Below, piece after piece: positions 4,306 to 20,430 of a stretch of DNA of 64,000 bases (position 1 is its first letter; every line of letters starts with the position of its first letter). The position numbers were made by a program, and so were the translations under genes. The stretch comes from a virus (Duplodnaviria; Heunggongvirae; Uroviricota; Caudoviricetes): IMG/VR virus record IMGVR_UViG_2695420859_000012. One strand, written 5' to 3'. The notes below the pieces were generated by a model, which worked only from the letters and a program-made list of their open reading frames with translations, was not told the DNA's origin and did not search any database.

Positions 4306-5294
4306 TACCTTTCGAATGGAAGAACATACACTTCAAGGTCTTCAAGGAACGAACGGAAATTCAGCTCGTAGCACAGTTGCTCGAATGCTTTCACGTCACG
4401 ATTGCCTTTGATTGTTTCGATTTCGGTAGGCGGAAACTTCGTCTCAATCAGGTTCATTAGCGTGATGTTTCTCTTGAACGCTTCGAGCATTCGACAGCCT
4501 GTTTTCTCGTTGAAGGCATTCTTCGCTAGTTTGTTGAAGGCGGTCTTATGGCGTCCTTTGTCAACCACGATTGAGCCGTCGTTGATGCCGCGTACCATCG
4601 TTGCGACACTTCCCCATTCATGCAGCAGCTCTTTCGCACCGCCAGCACCAATGCCACCAACACCGCTAATGTTGTCCGATTTATCGCCTTGTAATGCTTT
4701 TGCTTCCAAAAATGCGCGAGGAGTAGCGAATCCTGTCAGCTCCGCAAATTGCTCAAAATTAACCTGCTTGTTTTTGGCGTCTTCACGCAGGCTTACCCAG
4801 CTTACGTTTTCACGAACTAACTGAAGCCAGTCGCTATCGCCTGTTAACAGATAGATGTGTTCAACGGTTGGCTGCGGTGCCATGCGGGATACCAGCAGCC
4901 CGGCCAGATCATCCGCTTCTGCATCTTTTGCAATGAGTTGGGTAACTCCAAGCGCGGTCATCATTTTGAGGATGTATGGCTTCTGGATAGCAAAGCCTTC
5001 CTTCATCTTTTTCATATCAGGATCGTCGTCGCGATTTGCTTTGTAGTCCGGGTAAAAGTCGCGACGCTTGTCACTAAATCCATCCCAAAGAATCATAGGT
5101 CGGGCATGGAGGATGGAGGCATAACGACGGACGTTCTTAACAAAGCCGAAAGCAGCCTGTACTTCCATTTCGCCGTTGTGCAATTTGTCAGATTGTTGGT
5201 GGTAATAACCCAGGCTATTGCCATCTACGAAGAGATAATTCACCGGTACATTCCTTCCAAAAAGTAAGGCGTCCGTAGACGCCTTACTGGTCAC
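4299..5294 (-). CDS. 5'-3' exonuclease / flap endonuclease (FEN, RNase H-like)
   Basis: AKDAEADDLAG acidic motif and H3TH-like GDKSDNISGVGGIGAGGAKELL. Confidence 0.75.
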   Translation of the reverse strand: MTSKASTDALLFGRNVPVNYLFVDGNSLGYYHQQSDKLHNGEMEVQAAFGFVKNVRRYASILHARPMILWDGFSDKRRDFYPDYKANRDDDPDMKKMKEGFAIQKPYILKMMTALGVTQLIAKDAEADDLAGLLVSRMAPQPTVEHIYLLTGDSDWLQLVRENVSWVSLREDAKNKQVNFEQFAELTGFATPRAFLEAKALQGDKSDNISGVGGIGAGGAKELLHEWGSVATMVRGINDGSIVVDKGRHKTAFNKLAKNAFNEKTGCRMLEAFKRNITLMNLIETKFPPTEIETIKGNRDVKAFEQLCYELNFRSFLEDLEVYVLPFERYC

Positions 5295-5303
5295 GTAATG
5301 GGA

Positions 5304-6332
5304 TTACAGAGAGTCCAGCTCTCTCAGTAGGTCATCCAGACCTTCATCTTCCGTCGCAGATGCGGCTGCTACAGATGTCGTTGCGACTGCTTCAGACTCT
5401 TTGACTGATACTGCAACGGCAGCGGGACTTGCTTCTGGTTTAAATTCAGTTTCAACGGCACGGAGGATTTCTTCATCAACCAGACTGGTTGGTTCAGAAG
5501 CTGGGGTATGAGCGGTAGCTACAGCAGTCGCACCCTCCGTATGACCAGTGACAGAGCCAAATCCAGGTAGTGCCGCAGCCGATGTTTTCGCGGTTGAGGA
5601 AATTGCTGGTGCAGATGCTGCGGCAGTTGGTGCAGCGATGCCAATCAGACGACCCATAGTGCGAACTGTCGACAGAAGACGAGTTTCATCAGCCTGATTT
5701 GCGTATGCGATCAGATCATGCTGGGTATTCCAGAATTTATCTTCGATATCGCCTTTGTAGACTTTACGCTTAGGCGAGACGTCATATTTGGTATCGCGAC
5801 CAGAGCCAGTACGTTTAATCAGGAATGCGTAGCCTTCCTCTTTGCTCAGTGGATTGCCGATATCATCAGCGATGTCTTCGGTGATTGCTTTGCAGATATC
5901 ATCGAATACAGTAGACGGCAGCTCGATTAACTGGCATTTCTCAGCATCTGCGAAATCCTCACGAGCAGAAAGAATGCCGTTGACCAGGTAGCGAGGAGTG
6001 GCACGCATTTGACCGATGCGTTCTTCCATTGCTTTGTTACCCTTGTGACGAGCGCGACCTTCCATCACCATTTCGCATAGCTGACAAGCGCGACCGTGAG
6101 TATGTTGCTCACAAATATAAGCGTTGGTTGCTTCTTTACCTTCCTCGTTCTGATACTTAACGTAGTGCATACCGAAAGTCTGGAAGAACTTACCGTTTGG
6201 GTCGTCTTTATTCGGGAAGATGCGGATATAGTTGACGCCGTCTTTTAAGCGAGTCAGATCAACGTTGTTACCACGTTTGGCGGCAATGTCTTCACGAGTT
6301 TTGTTAAGCAAATCAAGTAATGTCTTAGACAT
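5304..6332 (-). CDS. Single-stranded DNA-binding protein, T4 gp32-like
   Basis: Recalled similarity to T4 gp32 around the zinc-binding region (IRIFPNKDDPNGKFF...CEQHTHGRACQLCE); Ala/Ser/Thr-rich acidic C-terminal tail. Confidence 0.6.
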   Translation of the reverse strand: MSKTLLDLLNKTREDIAAKRGNNVDLTRLKDGVNYIRIFPNKDDPNGKFFQTFGMHYVKYQNEEGKEATNAYICEQHTHGRACQLCEMVMEGRARHKGNKAMEERIGQMRATPRYLVNGILSAREDFADAEKCQLIELPSTVFDDICKAITEDIADDIGNPLSKEEGYAFLIKRTGSGRDTKYDVSPKRKVYKGDIEDKFWNTQHDLIAYANQADETRLLSTVRTMGRLIGIAAPTAAASAPAISSTAKTSAAALPGFGSVTGHTEGATAVATAHTPASEPTSLVDEEILRAVETEFKPEASPAAVAVSVKESEAVATTSVAAASATEDEGLDDLLRELDSL

Positions 6333-7007: not shown

Positions 7008-8177
7008 TCACGTCTTAATAGTTTCTGCTACGTCGGCTAATATCGCTTCTAGTCGTTCTCCCTCTTCAGGTCTGAAGTAAAGAATGTTGGGGTTAAACCC
7101 GTAAAAGACAGTAACGTCAAGGTCTGGAAGATACTCCTTCCTGCCGACCAAATCGGATGGCTTGTTTTTGTTGTTAAACAATGAAGTTGCCCGGCTGCCA
7201 CACGTCAGCACATAGGTCGGACGCACCAGATTGATCTCTTCACGCATAAAGTCGGTGAACTGGCCGATCTCGTCTTTGGTGTAGTCTTTTTCTTTGTCTT
7301 TAACCTTCTTGCAAACACCTGTGACATAGAGATCGCCCATGCGTAAATCTCCAGCCGTCAATAGCTTGGCCTTAAAGTCGTCGTATCCGTTCTCCATAAA
7401 GTAACCGGTTCGAGCATCATTGCCGTTCGCATTGTCCAGAATGATCATGATTTTCGGCTTAATACCAATGCTGGGGCGGATTAGTTCATCACCTAAGCCC
7501 ATTTCAGCCGCCATCCGCGTCATGAGTACGTTAATTTCAGCCGAACGTTTGGGGTTCATCTCAAACGGACGTGAGGCTTTAACTGCGTCTATGACAAGGT
7601 TTCCCATCAATTCAGCCTGGTCGCGTAGGCGCTCTGGATCAGTTGCTGGCAGACTGCCTGGCTCGATGGATGCAAACGCCCCTACTTTTTGCAGCGATTC
7701 GCGCACTCGACTATTACAGGCACGTTTCTCGACAGCTTCTTCGAATTGCGCCAGTGACTCGAATTTGCCGCCAACTTTTTCTCGCGCTCTCATGATGGCT
7801 TGGCAGCCATTCTCAGAACACCCCTTCACAGCAGAGAAGGGCGCATACAGCACCTGGCTGCCATCTTCAAGCGTGCGGATCTCGATTCGGTTAGATGACA
7901 CGTTAACGTCTGGTGGCAATACGCGAATGCCATAGGTCAGCGCATCTTTAACCAGCCCCTGGTGTTTATCTTCGCCAAGAATAGTGAGAGCAGCAGCGAA
8001 AAACTCTGCGGGATAATGAGTTTTCAACCACATAGATTGATAACTGATTAAGGAGTAAGCAACAGAGTGTGATTTGTTGAAGGCATACGCGCCGGATTTC
8101 TCAAACATATTCCAGATTTCTTCGGCTCGTTCGTGCGTCAGGCCATTGCTCTCTTCGACAACACCGGTAATTTTCAT
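7008..8177 (-). CDS. dnaE: DNA polymerase III alpha (DnaE-type), C-terminal fragment
   Basis: ERAEEIWNMFEKSGAYAFNKSHSVAYSLISYQSMWLKTHYPAEFFAA matches the DnaE finger region as recalled; GAGG 7 nt before the ATG, which overlaps the HNH stop (ATGA). Confidence 0.8.
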   Translation of the reverse strand: MKITGVVEESNGLTHERAEEIWNMFEKSGAYAFNKSHSVAYSLISYQSMWLKTHYPAEFFAAALTILGEDKHQGLVKDALTYGIRVLPPDVNVSSNRIEIRTLEDGSQVLYAPFSAVKGCSENGCQAIMRAREKVGGKFESLAQFEEAVEKRACNSRVRESLQKVGAFASIEPGSLPATDPERLRDQAELMGNLVIDAVKASRPFEMNPKRSAEINVLMTRMAAEMGLGDELIRPSIGIKPKIMIILDNANGNDARTGYFMENGYDDFKAKLLTAGDLRMGDLYVTGVCKKVKDKEKDYTKDEIGQFTDFMREEINLVRPTYVLTCGSRATSLFNNKNKPSDLVGRKEYLPDLDVTVFYGFNPNILYFRPEEGERLEAILADVAETIKT

Positions 8178-12831: not shown

Positions 12832-14940
12832 TCACTTTAAAATGATACGAGATAGTTCAGTAACTACAGATGAACCAAGACTATCAACGCTCGTTACCAG
12901 GGCATGATTTGAGTAAAATCTCTCCGGTGCGTCAGTCATGATGCCAATTGCCATCAAATCAATATCAGTCTGCGTTTCAATTTGCTTCGCAACTGAACGC
13001 AAATGAGCGTCAAAACCTCTCCCAACAGCCCACGGCGCGCCATCACTCAGAACAAGCATGATCTTCCTGTCCTCCATGCGACCGGAAAATAACGATGCAA
13101 GGCTGGCTATGCTTTCACCATCCACGTTATTAAGAAGTGGGAATGTGTAGCCTACGCACCCCATACGTGAGCGAACTTCGCGAGAATTTACCTTTTCATT
13201 CCAATTTTTGATGATAGGTAGCATTAAAGATTCAAAGCGAGAGAACTCATACTTGACAGCCTTAAGTTCTCCTGCCGCCATATGACTACCAAATGTAGTG
13301 AAGCCGGTGATAATGTTGGGAACATTTATTCGATCAAGGGCATCGGCGATGGTATATGCACTTGCAAGAGCCAGTTTAATCGTTATACCACTCATTGAAC
13401 CTGATAAATCAATCACTTGTTGAACACAGGCGTTAACGGCTTTAGATTCTTCTTTTTTACGAAACACGCGAGCATCATTCATTGCTAATCTGTAGATACT
13501 AGAACCATGAATGCGCCCCCGACGCTGGCCCGGTATAAACTGAACTCTGTTTCTGCTTGCTATTGCTCGCTCCAGGTCTTTTGCCAGCGTCGACGAAACA
13601 CCTGACGAAAGATGCTTTTCAATATATTTGTCGAAGAGCTGGTTGCCTTCAGGAACGATGCGATAGCGGCTGATTGGATATCCTCCCAAATCAATATCGG
13701 AGAATGTTTTAATAAGCCGTTTGATATGGGCTTCTGCCTGATCAATCGAGCCGATGAAGTCGTATGAGCGATTGTATGGCCTGTATTCGCTTTTCGAGCT
13801 TTCTGTTAACTCGCTTTTAATCGTTTCGGATAGAGCATCTTCTGTCATGCCTCCGACTTCATCTTCTATGCTATCCAGCTCCTCTAAAGCCTCTTCCAGA
13901 CTCATTTTTGACGGAGTTGGGATATCTGAAGAGCCATCTTCTGTCGTTTTTCTTTTTTCGTGGTCAGCGGTTAATGATTCTGACGCCGCGTTATCAGAAG
14001 CATCAGAATCTGATACCTCTTTATCATTTTCTGTATCATCGAATATTGTTTCTGATGATTCAGAATTATCTGAATCATCACTGTCGCTATTATCATGTTT
14101 GTACTTACTATGTGATTCTGATTTGATAGATTTGTGATTATCTAACACTGAGGGTGTCTCATGATCTTCGTTGTCTTCATTGTTTTCTCCAGAGGCATCC
14201 GTCTGGTCAGCGTCTGAAGGATCGGAAGTTTTTCCCGGAGCTGACTCCTTACCTTTGCTTTCACTTTCAGTGTCTTTGAGGATCTTAGCTATGGTCGCAG
14301 CCACCTTTACACAATCCTCGGTGCAAGACATGTTACGCACGGCCACATCGATACCATGTTCTTTTAATAATGAAATTGGTTTCTCAATGACAGGCCAATG
14401 TTCATCCATGAAATCTACGAACGGTGCTTGGCCATCCCAGGCTCTTACAACCGGACAGAGAAAGAAGTTTAGAAAAAGCGCGCGCTGATCTTTGCCACAA
14501 TAAGCAATAGCCTCTGAAGCCTTTGGTTTAAAGACTTTTTCGATTATAAGGCGCTGAGTTGCCATCAGATTACGTCTTGTTCCGTTAAAGACCTGACCCA
14601 TTTTTCGCTCGATGAACACGTCTTCTAAGGCATTCCATAGCGACCAGGAAGGAACGCGTCCTTTTTCTCTCATTTTGTTGGACACACGAATATCGGTAAA
14701 CAAAATGTGAGCAACCTCATGATCGAGAAATCCGCGCACAGCATTCATCAATGCCGGTGTTGCGTTATCCGGGATTGATGGGATGTTTACGAAAATTGGC
14801 TCTCCATCATCGTTATAGCGTACATAAGCGTCGTCCCCTCGTTCTGCAACAGGGATGTTTTTACCTGAAAGGAGAGCGACTACTCGTTTTACACTGTCAC
14901 GGAAGTCCTGAACCTCTTTGATGGAACGTTTTTTAGACAT
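12832..14940 (-). CDS. vWA-domain protein with acidic linker, CobT-like partner of the AAA+ ATPase
   Basis: C-terminal MIDAS-like DLSGSMSG; long Asp/Ser/Glu-rich low-complexity middle region. Confidence 0.65.
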   Translation of the reverse strand: MSKKRSIKEVQDFRDSVKRVVALLSGKNIPVAERGDDAYVRYNDDGEPIFVNIPSIPDNATPALMNAVRGFLDHEVAHILFTDIRVSNKMREKGRVPSWSLWNALEDVFIERKMGQVFNGTRRNLMATQRLIIEKVFKPKASEAIAYCGKDQRALFLNFFLCPVVRAWDGQAPFVDFMDEHWPVIEKPISLLKEHGIDVAVRNMSCTEDCVKVAATIAKILKDTESESKGKESAPGKTSDPSDADQTDASGENNEDNEDHETPSVLDNHKSIKSESHSKYKHDNSDSDDSDNSESSETIFDDTENDKEVSDSDASDNAASESLTADHEKRKTTEDGSSDIPTPSKMSLEEALEELDSIEDEVGGMTEDALSETIKSELTESSKSEYRPYNRSYDFIGSIDQAEAHIKRLIKTFSDIDLGGYPISRYRIVPEGNQLFDKYIEKHLSSGVSSTLAKDLERAIASRNRVQFIPGQRRGRIHGSSIYRLAMNDARVFRKKEESKAVNACVQQVIDLSGSMSGITIKLALASAYTIADALDRINVPNIITGFTTFGSHMAAGELKAVKYEFSRFESLMLPIIKNWNEKVNSREVRSRMGCVGYTFPLLNNVDGESIASLASLFSGRMEDRKIMLVLSDGAPWAVGRGFDAHLRSVAKQIETQTDIDLMAIGIMTDAPERFYSNHALVTSVDSLGSSVVTELSRIILK

Positions 14941-15502: not shown

Positions 15503-15889
15503 ATGTCTGACAACAAGATTGAATTTATAGAAAGTCGCTATGCTGCTTTTATCGCAGGGCTGATTGAATCCTCACCTATGAGTCAGGCCCAAATAGCCAG
15601 ACTTATTGGTTATAAAAATGCCAACAACCTTTCTTTAATTAAAAGTGGCAAAATTCCTTTGCCTATCGATAAGGTTCGTCCGTTGGCGCTGGCGCTGGGT
15701 ATTGAGCCAAGTCGTCTTATGATGATGGTGCTGGAAGAACGCCAACCTGAACTCGCAGCATTTTTATACAAAGAAGGCACCGCTCCTCTTAACGAGGACG
15801 AAAAACAGGTTCTTGCTGCATATAACGAGCGATTCGGTAAAGAGAAAGGCGCATCACAAAAGGTTGTTGAGGCCATAAAGTCTCTATGA
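15503..15889 (+). CDS. HTH transcriptional regulator (XRE-like)
   Basis: HTH-like segment MSQAQIARLIGYKNANNLSLIKSGK; plus strand, 3' end overlaps recombinase 3' end. Confidence 0.6.
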   Translation: MSDNKIEFIESRYAAFIAGLIESSPMSQAQIARLIGYKNANNLSLIKSGKIPLPIDKVRPLALALGIEPSRLMMMVLEERQPELAAFLYKEGTAPLNEDEKQVLAAYNERFGKEKGASQKVVEAIKSL

Positions 15890-16987
15890 AAAATTTACAC
15901 GAATAAGCTCTGTTGATAGACGATCTCCCTTGAATTTGTGGTCAATTTCGTCTAAATCCGGTTGCTCTACGATTGATGCGATGTACGTCGAGAAACTTTC
16001 TAAGGCGTCTCGCATCTCGTCCATATAATCGTGCCGGTCGTAGACTCGATCTATCCCCTCAAGACTGTGGTTCATGATTTTGCGTGATACCTCCTGGCTT
16101 ATGCCTAATGCTGGGAAGTAACTACGCGCAGTGCGGCGCAAGTCTCGGGGTGTAAATGGCTCAAGCTCCATCAGTTCTGGTCGTTCCAGAATACGACGTA
16201 ATGCCTGGGCTATTGCCACTTTAGACATAGGAAGGTCTTTCCCGATTTTTTTATTCGAAGGCACGAGCCACTGGCTGCCTTTACCGTATTCGAACAACTC
16301 TTCAATGCATGTGCGCATTAATGAGCTTAAAGGCAGAGAATGCTCACGGGCAGATTTGTTCCTCTTGCCTTGATTCCAAACCCCACGCTTAAGATTGAAC
16401 TCACTTTTTTTAGCCCGCAGTACTTCGTCAGGTCGTCTTGCGGATACAAGACATAGCCTGGCCGCCCATTTTGTACCAGCACACACATTGAAGTAGTCCC
16501 ATATATTCCAGAACACCCATACCTCTGCGTCGGTTAGCTTCCGCTCGCGAGGTGTGGGCTTTGCGCCACCGGCAACTTTGTTAAGTGACATATCGTTTAA
16601 CGGTGACACGTCGATCATCCCCTGGAAGGCGCACCAGCTGAGGAACTGCTTCATCAGAGAGAAAACGCGGCGACCCATAACAATTTTGCCATCCAGTATT
16701 AGTGGGTTGACCAGTTGGTTCACCATGAACCTATTAATATCACTTACTTTTACATCGGCAATGTGCGGCAAAACATGTATCAAAATACAATGAACAGCGA
16801 TCTCTGGCCGACGTCTTGTTATCAGCAGAGATAAGCGAGTGAATAACATGAATGCGTCCGAGAATCTCATGTCATTGCTGACCTGGGAGATCATAACGGC
16901 CTGCATTTGAGATGCTCTTTCGAGATACTCAATCGCCTCTTTTGAGGTGTTCTCCGCAGCGCGTGCTCTGTCAAAGCTATTTTTCAT
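15884..16987 (-). CDS. Tyrosine site-specific recombinase / integrase family
   Basis: LVSARRPDEV (catalytic Arg box), RDLRRTARS (HxxR-box variant), NHSLEGIDRVYDRHDY (nucleophile Tyr region). Confidence 0.75.
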   Translation of the reverse strand: MKNSFDRARAAENTSKEAIEYLERASQMQAVMISQVSNDMRFSDAFMLFTRLSLLITRRRPEIAVHCILIHVLPHIADVKVSDINRFMVNQLVNPLILDGKIVMGRRVFSLMKQFLSWCAFQGMIDVSPLNDMSLNKVAGGAKPTPRERKLTDAEVWVFWNIWDYFNVCAGTKWAARLCLVSARRPDEVLRAKKSEFNLKRGVWNQGKRNKSAREHSLPLSSLMRTCIEELFEYGKGSQWLVPSNKKIGKDLPMSKVAIAQALRRILERPELMELEPFTPRDLRRTARSYFPALGISQEVSRKIMNHSLEGIDRVYDRHDYMDEMRDALESFSTYIASIVEQPDLDEIDHKFKGDRLSTELIRVNFS

Positions 16988-17085: not shown

Positions 17086-17118
17086 AATGATTCCATACAT
17101 AGTAGGTATGGAATCATT
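17086..17118. other. Candidate recombination core site: 13-bp inverted repeats flanking a 7-bp spacer
   Basis: AATGATTCCATAC (17086-17098) / ATAGTAG / GTATGGAATCATT (17106-17118); arms are exact reverse complements; 130 bp upstream of the recombinase start. Confidence 0.45.
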
Positions 17119-17237
17119 GTAGGCCTTTTTTATAAAATCTGTGATTCTTCTCAGGATAAATTATCTAAACTAAAAATTGTGTTTTGTGTTGGCATCTGCT
17201 TGAATAGACGCATGTTTATTCAGATATGGAATAATCA

Positions 17238-17774
17238 GTGAACAACCAAATTCATTGGGACTACCCATTCTCAGAAGAATTCGGCAGTGGGATGGTACAC
17301 AGACAATTCACTGTGGGAAGCACTATTTATGCCGTTGGGTTTGAACAAATATTGACGATGGATGATTTCACACGTAAGGGAGTTGATATCCTAAATGTAC
17401 ATCCAACATTCCGGTTTCCTCTGAGTGGTGTATGGGGAGTGATTTTTGACGAAATTGACCCTGTAGAAATGGATTTCAAAGGATTTCGGCATATCCAACA
17501 TCAAGGCTTGGCAGGTGGTCAAGTGCTTTTGAATGTTGCAAGTATAATCTTTGACCATTATACTGTTTGTAACGCAGGAGCTTATGTCTTCTCCGCCGCA
17601 GACGACCATCAGCATTTACGCAGAACTGACTTGGTAGACATTTACTGTAAGATACTAGGTCTAAATGGAAAACGTAAAAGTAGATTGTTCGCCAATGGTT
17701 TTCCTGGATGGGAGGCATACTGTGATGTACCAACAGGAGGAAGAGGCTATGTCGTCACGACTGAAAGTTATTAA
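17238..17774 (+). CDS. Hypothetical protein, weak GNAT-like motif
   Basis: 178 aa; QHQGLAGGQVLL loosely resembles GNAT motif A; plus strand in accessory island. Confidence 0.4.
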   Translation: MNNQIHWDYPFSEEFGSGMVHRQFTVGSTIYAVGFEQILTMDDFTRKGVDILNVHPTFRFPLSGVWGVIFDEIDPVEMDFKGFRHIQHQGLAGGQVLLNVASIIFDHYTVCNAGAYVFSAADDHQHLRRTDLVDIYCKILGLNGKRKSRLFANGFPGWEAYCDVPTGGRGYVVTTESY

Positions 17775-17976
17775 TTATTACCCCACCTCTGCAGAACGTT
17801 TGAGCCTTGAAATGGGCGAAAGACTACAGAAAGCTGCTGGTCAGGATTTAAAGAACAAGTTGGGTTCAGGGGAAATTAAACTGATTAACGGTAAATATGT
17901 AGGTGAAAGCCTGAAAGTTAATAGCACCTCTATGCTAAAAGCGCGGTTGCGTAAAGCGTATATCTCCGCTAAATGA
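17749..17976 (+). CDS. Small hypothetical protein, overlapping downstream partner of 17238..17774
   Basis: Re-called start ATG at 17749 behind AGGAGG (MSSRLKVINYYPTSAERL..., 75 aa); track ORF 17665..17976 starts further upstream. Confidence 0.35.
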   Translation: MSSRLKVINYYPTSAERLSLEMGERLQKAAGQDLKNKLGSGEIKLINGKYVGESLKVNSTSMLKARLRKAYISAK

Positions 17977-18005
17977 AAAGGCCTATATGGGCCTTTTCAT
18001 TTTTA
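17976..18005. terminator. Intrinsic terminator hairpin between convergent genes
   Basis: aaaaggcc-tatatg-ggcctttt followed by cattttta. Confidence 0.6.
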
Positions 18006-18248
18006 TAGTGTACTCACCAGCGCCGCAAATTCCGTATACCCCCCAATATGCTCTCCATGTATGAATATCTGAGGTATGGTATCCACTGGTTTACCAACCT
18101 GGTTGCTCAACGTTTCTTTGTTGATCCCCGCAGATGTAATATCTATATACTCATAATCACCGTAGCCATGTCCCTTTAGTTGCTTCGCCAACTCGACCGC
18201 ACGTTTGCAGTATGAGCAGTTATCTCGTCCGTAGATAGTGATCGTCAT
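18003..18248 (-). CDS. Glutaredoxin (NrdH-like redoxin)
   Basis: 81 aa with CSYC active site (MTITIYGRDNCSYCKRAVELA). Confidence 0.8.
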   Translation of the reverse strand: MTITIYGRDNCSYCKRAVELAKQLKGHGYGDYEYIDITSAGINKETLSNQVGKPVDTIPQIFIHGEHIGGYTEFAALVSTL

Positions 18249-18421: not shown

Positions 18422-19330
18422 ATGATTGGTAAGTTGTCTGATTCTTTGATTGAAAATAAATACAACGAATTTAGAGAAGAAATATCTTTACTTTTTGACT
18501 ATTTAAATCAGATAAATGATACAACAAAGAAAAATATAAAACGTCTTCTTAAAGAAGTGGAGTATGCACAAAATCCAGATACTATTATTAATATTAATGA
18601 AACTATTAAGATTAAGTGTGGCACAACGTTAGCTCGCCATTTATGTTCAAACCCATATACAGGTTCAACATTAGAGATAGGTAACAGCGCCATTGATTTA
18701 GAAGAAAAGATAAGATTGTGTAATACTTTGAAAAATAAACAATATCAGTGGGTTATTACTGAAGCCTATGAGTTACTGGAAGACTATATTGAGGCAATAT
18801 ATGTCTATACTGTATGTGTTCGAAATGATTTATGGTCCTCAAGTGATTTTGGTAAGGTTGAAGATGATGAAATTGGGAAAAGGGAAGTTTATTACAGATT
18901 ATTAAAAGCAAAAAGTAACCCATCGAAAAAAATAACTAAAATTTTCAGAAATAAAATACCTGGCTTCAAAGAGATAGAAACAAACAACAAGATTGGCAAA
19001 AACTATCGCTTTAACATCAAGCTAATTGAACTACTAAGACATACAATAGTACACAATAGTGGACGATTCAATGATACAGAAAAATTTATAAATAAGGTTT
19101 TAGATGAATCTGAAATAAACGGTAAGAAAAGAGTTATTGGAGAAAGAGCTGTTAGAAGTTACATTACTAAAGTGCAAGAAGATGATATTGTGATGCTCTT
19201 AGAAAGACCATCTGAAATTTTAGGTTCTTTTGGTGGGTATTTTAACAGAGCAAAATTTTTACTAAGTGATATTTTAGAATACTCACTAATCATTAAAGAA
19301 GAACTAAAATCATATCTAGGCAATCATTAA
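18422..19330 (+). CDS. AT-rich cargo protein with HEPN-like Rx4H motif; candidate abortive-infection/defence protein
   Basis: 302 aa; LLRHTIVHNSG (R206-x4-H211); Lys/Asn/Ile-rich; AGAGG RBS; own terminator. Confidence 0.45.
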   Translation: MIGKLSDSLIENKYNEFREEISLLFDYLNQINDTTKKNIKRLLKEVEYAQNPDTIININETIKIKCGTTLARHLCSNPYTGSTLEIGNSAIDLEEKIRLCNTLKNKQYQWVITEAYELLEDYIEAIYVYTVCVRNDLWSSSDFGKVEDDEIGKREVYYRLLKAKSNPSKKITKIFRNKIPGFKEIETNNKIGKNYRFNIKLIELLRHTIVHNSGRFNDTEKFINKVLDESEINGKKRVIGERAVRSYITKVQEDDIVMLLERPSEILGSFGGYFNRAKFLLSDILEYSLIIKEELKSYLGNH

Positions 19331-19507: not shown

Positions 19508-19594
19508 CTGGCGGAGAGTAATGGAATCGAACCATCATCGCTTGCGCAATGGGACGGTTTTCAAGACCGCTTGAGCACCATGCTCCCTACTCTC
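19508..19594 (-). tRNA. tRNA-Ser (anticodon UGA), type II, CCA encoded
   Basis: Own cloverleaf: acceptor GGAGAGU/ACUCUCC, anticodon loop CUUGAAA, long variable arm, T-loop GGTTCGATTCC. Confidence 0.7.
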
Positions 19595-19694
19595 CAGCTA
19601 TTGTGATGGTCGGTGCTGAACTCCGACACAGGGTTGTAGCAAGCCCCGCAAAGCGCGCACTACTGTAGTTGCGGCACATCAGCCTGTGCATTCA

Positions 19695-19773
19695 TCACAA
19701 CGGTAAGATCACTACCTTTCGACCAGTCATTGTGCACATGAACGACGATTAACCGTAATGATCTTATCGTTGT
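19695..19773. repeat. Stem-loop of the CACAACGGTAAGA family
   Basis: cacaacggtaagatcac pairs with atgatcttatcgttgtg. Confidence 0.55.
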
Positions 19774-19824
19774 GTTGTGAAGCCAGATGCTTATCTTCTG
19801 GTTGCTTCAAAGAGCTGCACTTCC

Positions 19825-19913
19825 TCACAACGGTAAGAGCACTGGTCTGACTCTATCGATTTACGGCCTTGTGGGTCAGTATCGCCGATTCGCCCAATGC
19901 TCTTACCTGTTGT
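19825..19913. repeat. Stem-loop of the CACAACGGTAAGA family abutting tRNA-Thr 3' end
   Basis: cacaacggtaagagca pairs with tgctcttacctgttgtg. Confidence 0.55.
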
Positions 19914-19914
19914 G

Positions 19915-19990
19915 TTGGTGCCGGTTAACGGACTTGAACCGCTGGCCATTCGCTTACAAAGCGACTGCTCTACCAACTGAGCTAAACCGG
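19915..19990 (-). tRNA. tRNA-Thr (anticodon UGU), CCA encoded
   Basis: Own cloverleaf: acceptor GCCGGUU/AACCGGC, anticodon loop UUUGUAA, T-loop GGTTCAAGTCC; 76 nt. Confidence 0.65.
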
Positions 19991-19994
19991 CAAT

Positions 19995-20081
19995 TTGGTG
20001 GGGAGTGATGGAGTCGAACCACCCGAGTCGCCATGACAGTAGATTTACAGTCTACACCGCTACCTCTACGGACTAACTCCC
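19995..20081 (-). tRNA. tRNA-Tyr (anticodon GUA), type II, CCA encoded
   Basis: Acceptor GGGGAGU/ACUCCCC, anticodon stem GUAGA/UCUAC with loop CUGUAAA, long variable arm. Confidence 0.7.
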
Positions 20082-20086
20082 CTAAA

Positions 20087-20161
20087 TTGGCGATGGTGGG
20101 TGGATTCGAACCACCGACCAGTTGGTTAACAGCCAACTGCTCTACCGCTGAGCTACACCAT
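20087..20161 (-). tRNA. tRNA-Asn (anticodon GUU), CCA encoded
   Basis: Acceptor GAUGGUG/CACCAUC, anticodon stem GUUGG/CCAAC with loop CUGUUAA, T-loop GGTTCGAATCC. Confidence 0.75.
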
Positions 20162-20430
20162 CAATTCAGCACTGCCAGTATTTATTACTCAACAGTGCCA
20201 ATCGCGACGGTTTAGTTTCTGCCAGGAAACGCACCGCTACTTGCACTTTTCGTTAGTGCCAGACGCTTTCGACTTCGCTCAATAGTAGAAGGCAAAATCT
20301 TTAAGTAGATGATGTTTCTGAGGACAGCACCTACTTTGTAATTTATACAATGTGATGTATGGAATCATTTGTTGTGAAAACAGGCACCAATGGCAACAGT
20401 GGTTAAACCTACACAACAATCCCGTCTTCA

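Follow-up and report, generated by a model that had tools for sequence, protein, structure and literature searches.

What do two small overlapping genes do that lie beside a recombinase gene, belong to no described family, and travel together between unrelated genomic places? The question is raised by positions 17238 to 17976 of the virus record IMGVR_UViG_2695420859_000012 (Caudoviricetes), of which a stretch of 64,000 nucleotides, here called the window, was analysed. A sequence-only reading of the window had described at this point a plus-strand cassette next to the recombinase, composed of a gene for a 178-residue protein (A) and an overlapping gene for a 75-residue protein (B). The coordinates, the gene calls of PGAP and all 20 intact loci that were compared agree with this description. 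Two translationally coupled genes, with a promoter region and a terminator of their own, make up an autonomous module that moves horizontally, and substitution ratios show both genes to be under purifying selection. We tentatively propose a new toxin-antitoxin or abortive-infection-like module, in which A would be the effector and B its controller.

The genes and the expression signals of the cassette are as follows.

17238-17774, plus strand: gene A, 178 residues, GTG start, weak Shine-Dalgarno sequence, isoelectric point 5.7, 20.1 kDa
17749-17976, plus strand: gene B, 75 residues, ATG start, isoelectric point 10.1, 8.3 kDa
17735-17740, plus strand: AGGAGG Shine-Dalgarno sequence of gene B, 8 nt before the ATG and within the codons of GGRGY, the conserved C-terminus of A
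17749-17774, plus strand: dual-coding overlap of A and B, 26 nt; A ends ...YVVTTESY-stop and B begins MSSRLKVI...
17177-17205, plus strand: candidate promoter, TTGTGT (17177-17182), a 17-nt spacer and TTGAAT (17200-17205) with TG(c) before it
17971-18002, both strands: intrinsic terminator with 16-nt arms, then UUUUCAUUUUU (U-run)

Gene A is identical to the PGAP call WP_077818713.1 and gene B matches WP_032328855.1, both of them annotated as hypothetical. In the mechanical list of open reading frames (ORFs), B had been given 103 residues from 17665; the start was corrected to the ATG at 17749, which is the conserved one because all B homologues begin with MSS. At each of the 20 loci examined in which A is intact, the two genes overlap by 26-53 nt. 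The sequence CAGGAGGAAGAGGnTATGTCGTCAC is kept at the nucleotide level across genera, reading GGRGYVVTT in the frame of A and supplying the ribosome-binding site and the MSS start in the frame of B. The translation signals of B are the same at every locus, namely an ATG after a strong AGGAGG Shine-Dalgarno sequence. The start codon of A is GTG in 12 of 15 loci, with a weak Shine-Dalgarno sequence in the window. A programmed frameshift that would fuse A with B was considered and rejected, since B has its own ribosome-binding site and ATG everywhere.

Upstream of A, the hexamer pair TTGTGT-TTGAAT is probably the promoter of the cassette. Of 15 upstream regions, which otherwise have no sequence in common, 10 have the string (T/G)TTGAAT at a distance of about 36 nt from the start of A, and the TTGAAT hexamer is kept between the window and a chromosomal copy in Dickeya; a consensus promoter scanner made no call at these hexamers. 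Downstream, the hairpin has a folding energy of -21.1 kcal/mol on the plus strand (z = -6.1 against shuffles) and -18.3 kcal/mol on the minus strand (z about -6). As it folds on both strands, it would serve gene B and the convergent glutaredoxin gene alike. The strong AGGAGG site of the small gene and the terminator had been pointed out from the letters alone, and both hold. An Rfam scan of the region gave nothing relevant.

The mobility of the pair is seen directly in its distribution. Homology between the window and the chromosome of Dickeya undicola covers 17166-18009 at 76% identity; it starts about 70 nt ahead of A, takes in the terminator and extends no further. The pair occurs on phage-plasmids of E. 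coli, Citrobacter, Salmonella and K. oxytoca, in the moron region of a Yersinia aldovae prophage near an Mrr-type nuclease, and on plasmid-like metagenome contigs beside CBASS (Cap15 and CD-NTase), Pycsar and PLD genes. It is also found as a lone insertion between unrelated housekeeping genes in Dickeya, Erwinia, Serratia (queE/queD), Enterobacter, Pluralibacter, Franconibacter and others. Across Enterobacterales the overlapping pair thus has no fewer than 14 unrelated locations, which have no third conserved gene in common.

At 90% identity the A family falls into 43 clusters; the B family has 58 clusters. A search of 1.84 billion representatives with a profile hidden Markov model (HMM) of A returned 28 clusters at 50% identity, none of them linked to an annotated family. 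A pattern-based scan placed A in at least 11 of 185,579 species-representative genomes, all of them Enterobacterales, a count that is a lower bound. The allele of E. coli and Salmonella lies on hundreds of contigs, S. Typhi included, and both proteins are labelled hypothetical in every source. Among 50,697 phage records, including the phage-plasmids Cyrano and CMS-2020a, tblastn and blastn searches with the cassette found no carrier. In two places a canonical 182-residue GNAT gene lies directly upstream of an A homologue on the same strand, at 7380-7928 of a Dickeya chromosomal locus (L006) and at 196-744 of a metagenome contig (L047). These two genes are mutually unrelated and lie outside the shared cassette. 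Their position may be due to chance, yet 2 of roughly 15-20 contexts exceeds the expected frequency of GNAT genes.

Both genes are maintained as coding sequences. In the non-overlapping parts, the ratio of nonsynonymous to synonymous substitution rates (dN/dS) is 0.12 for A and 0.22 for B against the Citrobacter copy, and 0.09 and 0.10, respectively, against the Dickeya copy. The overlapping pair is also kept in remote relatives at about 30-35% identity, four of which are informative on the shape of B. Beside a homologue of 34% identity on the 5-Mb chromosome CP017482.1, an uncalled overlapping ORF starts with MSSS and carries the B core. Downstream of a second remote homologue, a 63-residue protein matches the B core (hhalign probability 85%). 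A third (P0068, at 5001-6102 of locus L050) has a 189-residue partner with the core motif KRKLNTGEYVMYQGRIV in its first 50 or so residues, followed by an extension that has no Pfam or PDB match. The fourth has an overlapping 102-residue partner without an evident motif. From these architectures, the conserved unit appears to be A together with the helix-hairpin core of B, the C-terminal appendage being variable. The flanks of L050 hold a giant polyvalent protein (LPD5, LPD1, MuF_C, LPD38) and genes for NADAR, PRTase-CE, Deam_C and DUF6911; this locus is a conflict-system-rich mobile element.

That no family could be assigned by eye is explained by the searches, as none has been described. A and B have no match in Pfam, PHROGs, NCBIfam or PADLOC (E<=1), nor in PDB sequences when family profiles are used, and a literature search by accession and by topic gave no description of either protein. 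No housekeeping or phage structural family proved homologous to either. Profile HMMs and structure prediction, the checks proposed for both proteins, gave no profile match, a reduced GNAT fold for A and a helix-hairpin for B.

The structure model of A is confident. Its elements are a strand at 65-74, a helix at 95-111, a strand at 115-119, a helix at 132-140, and strands at 159-162 and 170-174, and their order is that of the GNAT core beta4-alpha3-beta5-alpha4-beta6-beta7, with a V-shaped cleft. The N-terminal GNAT arm beta1-alpha1-alpha2, which contributes to the acceptor site, is missing; a beta-hairpin (19-26, 29-38) with two short helices is all that precedes the core strand. The proteins of GNAT fold listed for A include AHL (acyl-homoserine lactone) synthases, N-terminal acetyltransferases, Elp3 and aminoglycoside acetyltransferases, as well as TacT2, TacT3, 7byy (titled bacterial toxin acetyltransferase), AcrVA5, Mom, FemX and ODC antizyme. 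A search of viral structures in BFVD gave weak matches, with template-modelling (TM) scores of about 0.5, the best of which include domains of multi-domain phage proteins annotated as Zeta-toxin, deaminase and ParB.

At the sequence level, the relation to GNAT proteins is far less visible. No acetyltransferase profile of Pfam was matched at E<=10 by any of 32 members of the A family, and hhalign of the A family with canonical GNAT gave a probability of 0.1%, that is, no relation. The weak GNAT-like motif noticed earlier, QHQGLAGGQVLL, occupies residues 87-98 of A, in the loop directly before the helix 95-111. In the GNAT topology the loop that binds the pyrophosphate of the cofactor, with its conserved Q/RxxGxG/A, sits just before that long helix, and the position of the motif therefore fits. 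Its HxGLxGG pattern is at the correct position in close relatives of A, and in the remote relatives (28-35% identity) unrelated residues are found instead; together with the missing acetyltransferase profile, this leaves the motif only partly upheld. The positions that remote relatives do keep are F70-D71, H85, V100-A101, H107-Y108, Y116, A120-A121, R128, L132, Y136, G141 and R169-G-Y171. The model thus shows A as a divergent, N-terminally reduced protein of GNAT fold with enzyme-like conserved polar residues, and the use of acetyl-CoA by A is doubtful. A role as AHL synthase was rejected, as the Z-score for LuxI-type proteins is the same as for other GNATs, there is no LuxR partner, and the N-terminal helices are missing.

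The model of B (predicted local distance difference test, pLDDT, of 78) has a disordered N-terminus, a long helix at 14-40, a beta-hairpin at 43-52 and a low-confidence tail rich in K and R. The core carries the motif LQxAAxxxxKxKLxSGExxxxNG(R/K), with invariant K37, G41 and G48, and is kept while the C-terminus varies from 10 to 135 residues. The model has no fold match, and members of the B family have no Pfam match even at E<=10. With its small size, disordered ends, variable tail and conserved core, B looks like a labile regulator, and its helix and beta-hairpin most likely dock onto A. A precursor and enzyme pair for a ribosomally synthesised, post-translationally modified peptide was rejected; a transporter is lacking, and conservation of B extends over its whole core.

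How, then, would the pair work? If A and B are a toxin-antitoxin or abortive-infection-like module, A would be an effector performing a transferase-type modification of a cellular target, with a donor that need not be acetyl-CoA. From its strong ribosome-binding site and ATG, B would be produced in excess; it would bind A and hold it in check, and its loss or titration, for example through plasmid loss or phage infection, would release A as the toxic component. We infer complex formation and this division into effector and controller because A is enzyme-like and B small and partly disordered, because the translation signals of B are the stronger, and because of the mobility and the neighbours of the module. 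The pair is bicistronic, autonomous and mobile in varied contexts, as type II toxin-antitoxin systems generally are.

Several findings speak for this reading. The module stands alone at many unrelated loci without a third conserved gene, the pairing is obligate, the overlap conserved and the translation signals asymmetric, and purifying selection acts on both genes. In a sister element the same slot holds a YafO-toxin pair, in other elements the next slot holds an AbiGi-family gene, and some copies of the cassette adjoin CBASS, Pycsar or Mrr genes. Finally, A has decayed with B intact in at least three lineages (records L005, L035 and L036). Serratia plymuthica and S. inhibens have frameshifts in A, each at another position, and on an Enterobacter mori plasmid A is cut by an IS3-family element. 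In E. coli phage-plasmid contigs (L038/L039), too, an insertion sequence interrupts A.

A second body of findings weighs on the other side. Neither fold nor Pfam searches recognise in B a ribbon-helix-helix, a helix-turn-helix or another antitoxin domain, the pair is without a match in PADLOC, Pfam, NCBIfam and PHROGs, the charges are reversed relative to many type II pairs (A acidic, B basic), and most of the chromosomal contexts are not defence islands. In one E. coli phage-plasmid record (L037, UWWW01000002.1, assembly GCA_900607965.1) A is identical to that of the window and residues 32-68 of B are deleted; the deletion, equivalent to 17842-18003 of the window, also removes one arm of the terminator, in an assembly of uncertain quality with 10 gap positions in the adjacent 1.4 kb. 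A constitutively lethal A should not tolerate such a loss of the B core. In a type II module, where one partner is toxic alone, the toxin would be the only partner to be found inactivated in nature. Four A-inactivating events stand against one B-inactivating event, and 2.5:1 is predicted from the non-overlapping lengths (511 and 202 nt). The 4:1 ratio is within this target-size expectation, and the decay pattern therefore leaves the polarity unestablished. It suggests that neither protein is unconditionally lethal alone, and half-modules of both polarities weaken the classical toxin-antitoxin model. The likeness to toxin-antitoxin or defence modules that had been proposed from the architecture is thus plausible; it is supported by the autonomy of the module, the YafO pair in its slot and the CBASS, Pycsar and Mrr neighbours, and is weakened by the missing PADLOC match, the missing antitoxin domain and the half-modules.

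The pair shares with the toxin-antitoxin systems of a GNAT toxin and a ribbon-helix-helix antitoxin (TacA-TacT, AtaR-AtaT, KacA-KacT, ItaR-ItaT) the two-gene mobile module on plasmids and chromosomes of Enterobacterales, and the small partner. In that family the antitoxin has an N-terminal ribbon-helix-helix and a DUF1778 region that binds the toxin, its gene lies upstream, and it neutralises a toxin that stops growth by acetylating aminoacyl-tRNA. Here, however, the order is the opposite one and the GNAT-like gene comes first; A has neither a match to the Acetyltransf profiles of Pfam nor the N-terminal beta1-alpha1-alpha2, its cofactor-loop motif is not family-wide, B has no ribbon-helix-helix or DUF1778, and A is acidic and B basic. 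On the grounds of gene order, the missing DUF1778 or ribbon-helix-helix domain and the missing acetyltransferase profile, the pair is not a member of that family, and it belongs to none of the systems in PADLOC (PADLOC-DB v2, 2023).

With HigB-HigA, MqsR-MqsA and HicA-HicB, the pair would share, if A is the toxin, the order of toxin first and antidote second, and it does share the overlapping or translationally coupled genes and the autonomous mobile module. The toxins there are RNases encoded upstream and smaller than the antitoxins, which lie downstream and have a helix-turn-helix. Here, in contrast, the upstream protein is the larger one and GNAT-like, the downstream protein is a helix-hairpin of 75 residues, and there is no relation in sequence or fold. 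The minimal or atypical proteins of GNAT fold, namely the anti-CRISPR AcrVA5, Mom of phage Mu, LuxI-type AHL synthases and ODC antizyme, differ from A in having only 1-14% sequence identity with it, and no LuxR or other family-specific partner is present.

The first alternative is that A and B are an enzyme and its partner without toxicity, A being a transferase and B its substrate, specificity subunit or adaptor. We regard this as possible, though doubtful. The target of acylation by A might be Lys37 of B or the Ser at the N-terminus of processed B, or the basic tail of B might target A to nucleic acid, and the module would serve phage-host conflict, as defence or anti-defence, or niche physiology, without addiction. 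The natural variants with only A or only B argue for it, as neither partner is obviously lethal alone, and so does the conserved B core with a C-terminus of 10 to 135 residues, as would be expected of an adaptor with different payloads. The remote homologue of A that adjoins the polyvalent protein and the NADAR, PRTase-CE and Deam_C genes is in keeping with it, and so are the viral structural matches to domains of multi-domain phage proteins (Zeta-toxin, deaminase, ParB), although these matches are weak, at a TM of about 0.5. The MSS start of all B homologues would suit an acylated N-terminal Ser; however, the YVVTT codons of A, with which it overlaps, impose this start as well, and its conservation is no independent evidence. 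Additionally, lone chromosomal copies that are retained vertically, as at queE/queD in Serratia, are hard to fit to a phage anti-defence gene.

The second alternative reverses the polarity, so that the small basic protein B would be the toxin and the GNAT-like A the antitoxin that binds or modifies it; we consider this unlikely. Such a pair would resemble TopAI(YjhX)-YjhQ of E. coli or type VII systems. TopAI(YjhX)-YjhQ combines in one operon a small protein and a GNAT-type protein of about 180 residues, and YjhQ is a precedent for a GNAT protein as antitoxin. The pairing of a small protein with a GNAT-type protein of this size is common to both; in TopAI(YjhX)-YjhQ, however, YjhX comes first and YjhQ is a canonical GNAT, and neither family was matched here. 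The upstream place of A is the usual one of an antitoxin, B is small and basic with a tail rich in K and R and A is acidic, and L037, with A intact and the B core deleted, fits as well. Against this stands the survival of B, because of which the reversed polarity is disfavoured: A has been lost in two Serratia species and on the Enterobacter mori plasmid with B and its strong ribosome-binding site intact, and a toxic B should not survive in these three lineages. The decay pattern speaks in this way against B as the toxin, the translation signals are stronger for B than for A, which is the opposite of what a toxin needs, and B matches no toxin family, YjhX included.

That A and B are chance reading frames or decaying remnants without function, as the lack of a match in any annotated family might suggest, is refuted by the selection and conservation data (dN/dS of 0.09-0.22 for both genes, both proteins kept across genera, at identities down to about 30-45% and with the overlap retained, a confident structure model for A, and PGAP calls for both), and we give it next to no credence.

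The reading of A and B as an effector and its controller draws part of its support from the place they occupy in their host element. The 5 kb surrounding the cassette is SSU5/pHCM2-type phage-plasmid sequence, with a 97% match to the Escherichia phages CMS-2020a and Cyrano and a 100% match to the E. coli plasmid pSJC33-2, and by this similarity the window is assigned to an SSU5/pHCM2-type phage-plasmid. Within it the cassette fills a variable slot with a palindrome at its border.

17119-18002, plus strand: variable cargo of this phage-plasmid, here the A-B cassette, between the tyrosine recombinase and glutaredoxin genes
17086-17118: near-perfect palindrome AATGATTCCATAC-ATAGTAG-GTATGGAATCATT at the border of the slot, between the recombinase gene and the cargo and outside the cassette

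The cassette is present in 10 of 518 plasmids carrying this recombinase and in 4 of 5,426 complete E. coli genomes, on a plasmid each time. In most E. coli relatives the slot is empty and the recombinase and glutaredoxin genes are adjacent. A sister element has in the same slot a toxin of the YafO family (Pfam YafO_toxin, 4.6e-22) with a 201-residue partner, another relative has an uncharacterised protein of 307 residues, and Cyrano has the gene CYRAN_43, which is unrelated to A. The cassette behaves as other cargo of SSU5 elements does, being optional, fixed in position and sharply bordered, and alternating with a YafO-toxin pair, other genes or nothing; it differs in that its content is an unannotated family.

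The palindrome, in the divergent region upstream of the recombinase gene, has arms of 16 nt that are 94% complementary, a folding energy of -17.4 kcal/mol (z = -4.8) and a T-run after it. Elements with five different slot contents are identical through its last base and then diverge at once, and it is missing from the Dickeya chromosomal copy of the cassette. With 13-bp arms around a centre of about 7 bp, its geometry resembles that of core sites of the lox/dif type. It could be the target of the recombinase and the entry point of the cargo, or merely a terminator-like hairpin. A third arm-like copy lies at 17222-17235.

A second variable position lies beyond the glutaredoxin gene, with an AT-rich ORF of 302 residues here and an AbiGi-family gene in sister elements. 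The ORF matches phrog_35492 (unknown function) and, weakly at its N-terminus, a PHROG described as anti-restriction nuclease; it has no PADLOC or Pfam match and is a candidate defence or abortive-infection gene. According to a paper on SSU5 elements (PMC7969092), tyrosine recombinases are among the persistent genes of these elements, and the variable genes of the SSU5 supergroup include toxin-antitoxin, restriction-modification and anti-restriction genes. In the literature on SSU5 elements that was searched by terms, that paper included, no mention of this particular slot and its bordering palindrome was found.

Taken further, the pair could found an undescribed family of conflict modules, of the toxin-antitoxin or abortive-infection kind or for phage defence, a proposal that we put forward as speculative. 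A would be an enzyme of N-terminally reduced GNAT fold that lacks the cofactor motif and has a non-canonical donor or a new target, the B core a new helix-hairpin domain of about 40 residues that acts as controller and can be fused to C-terminal payloads, and the palindrome a site of cassette exchange in SSU5-type phage-plasmids. Clinical E. coli, Salmonella (including Typhi) and Klebsiella commonly carry phage-plasmids of the SSU5/pHCM2 type, and the variable cargo of these elements decides their stability and their interaction with phages. The cassette is on hundreds of contigs, and yet both protein families are without annotation. As a toxin-antitoxin or defence module, the pair would represent a new effector lineage within the GNAT fold and a new small controller domain, and it would mark a sharply bordered cargo slot, possibly served by the recombinase, that can be mined for further systems. 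If it is neither, A and B are one more conserved hypothetical pair.

The neighbourhood of the cassette in the window contains the following genes.

12832-14940, minus strand: gene for a CobT-like VWA protein of 702 residues with an acidic low-complexity insert rich in Ser, Asp and Glu (residues ~225-345)
Between the CobT-like gene and the helix-turn-helix gene: ORF of 70 residues
15503-15889, plus strand: gene for a helix-turn-helix regulator
15884-16987, minus strand: tyrosine recombinase gene (Pfam Phage_integrase, 4e-10)
18003-18248, minus strand: GrxA-type glutaredoxin gene, convergent with gene B
18422-19330, plus strand: the AT-rich ORF of 302 residues, with a G+C content of 28-31% against ~42-50% in its flanks
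19509-20162, minus strand: four tRNA genes, Ser-TGA, Thr-TGT, Tyr-GTA and Asn-GTT

The CobT-like VWA protein is annotated in the plasmid record as 'cobaltochelatase CobT-related'. The genes of the helix-turn-helix regulator and the recombinase are convergent, with an overlap of 6 nt at their 3' ends, and this arrangement is the same in all relatives inspected. Cyrano has three of the four tRNA genes, Tyr being the missing one, and the tRNA region of the window is 84-87% identical to those of the phage-plasmids P1, P7 and D6.

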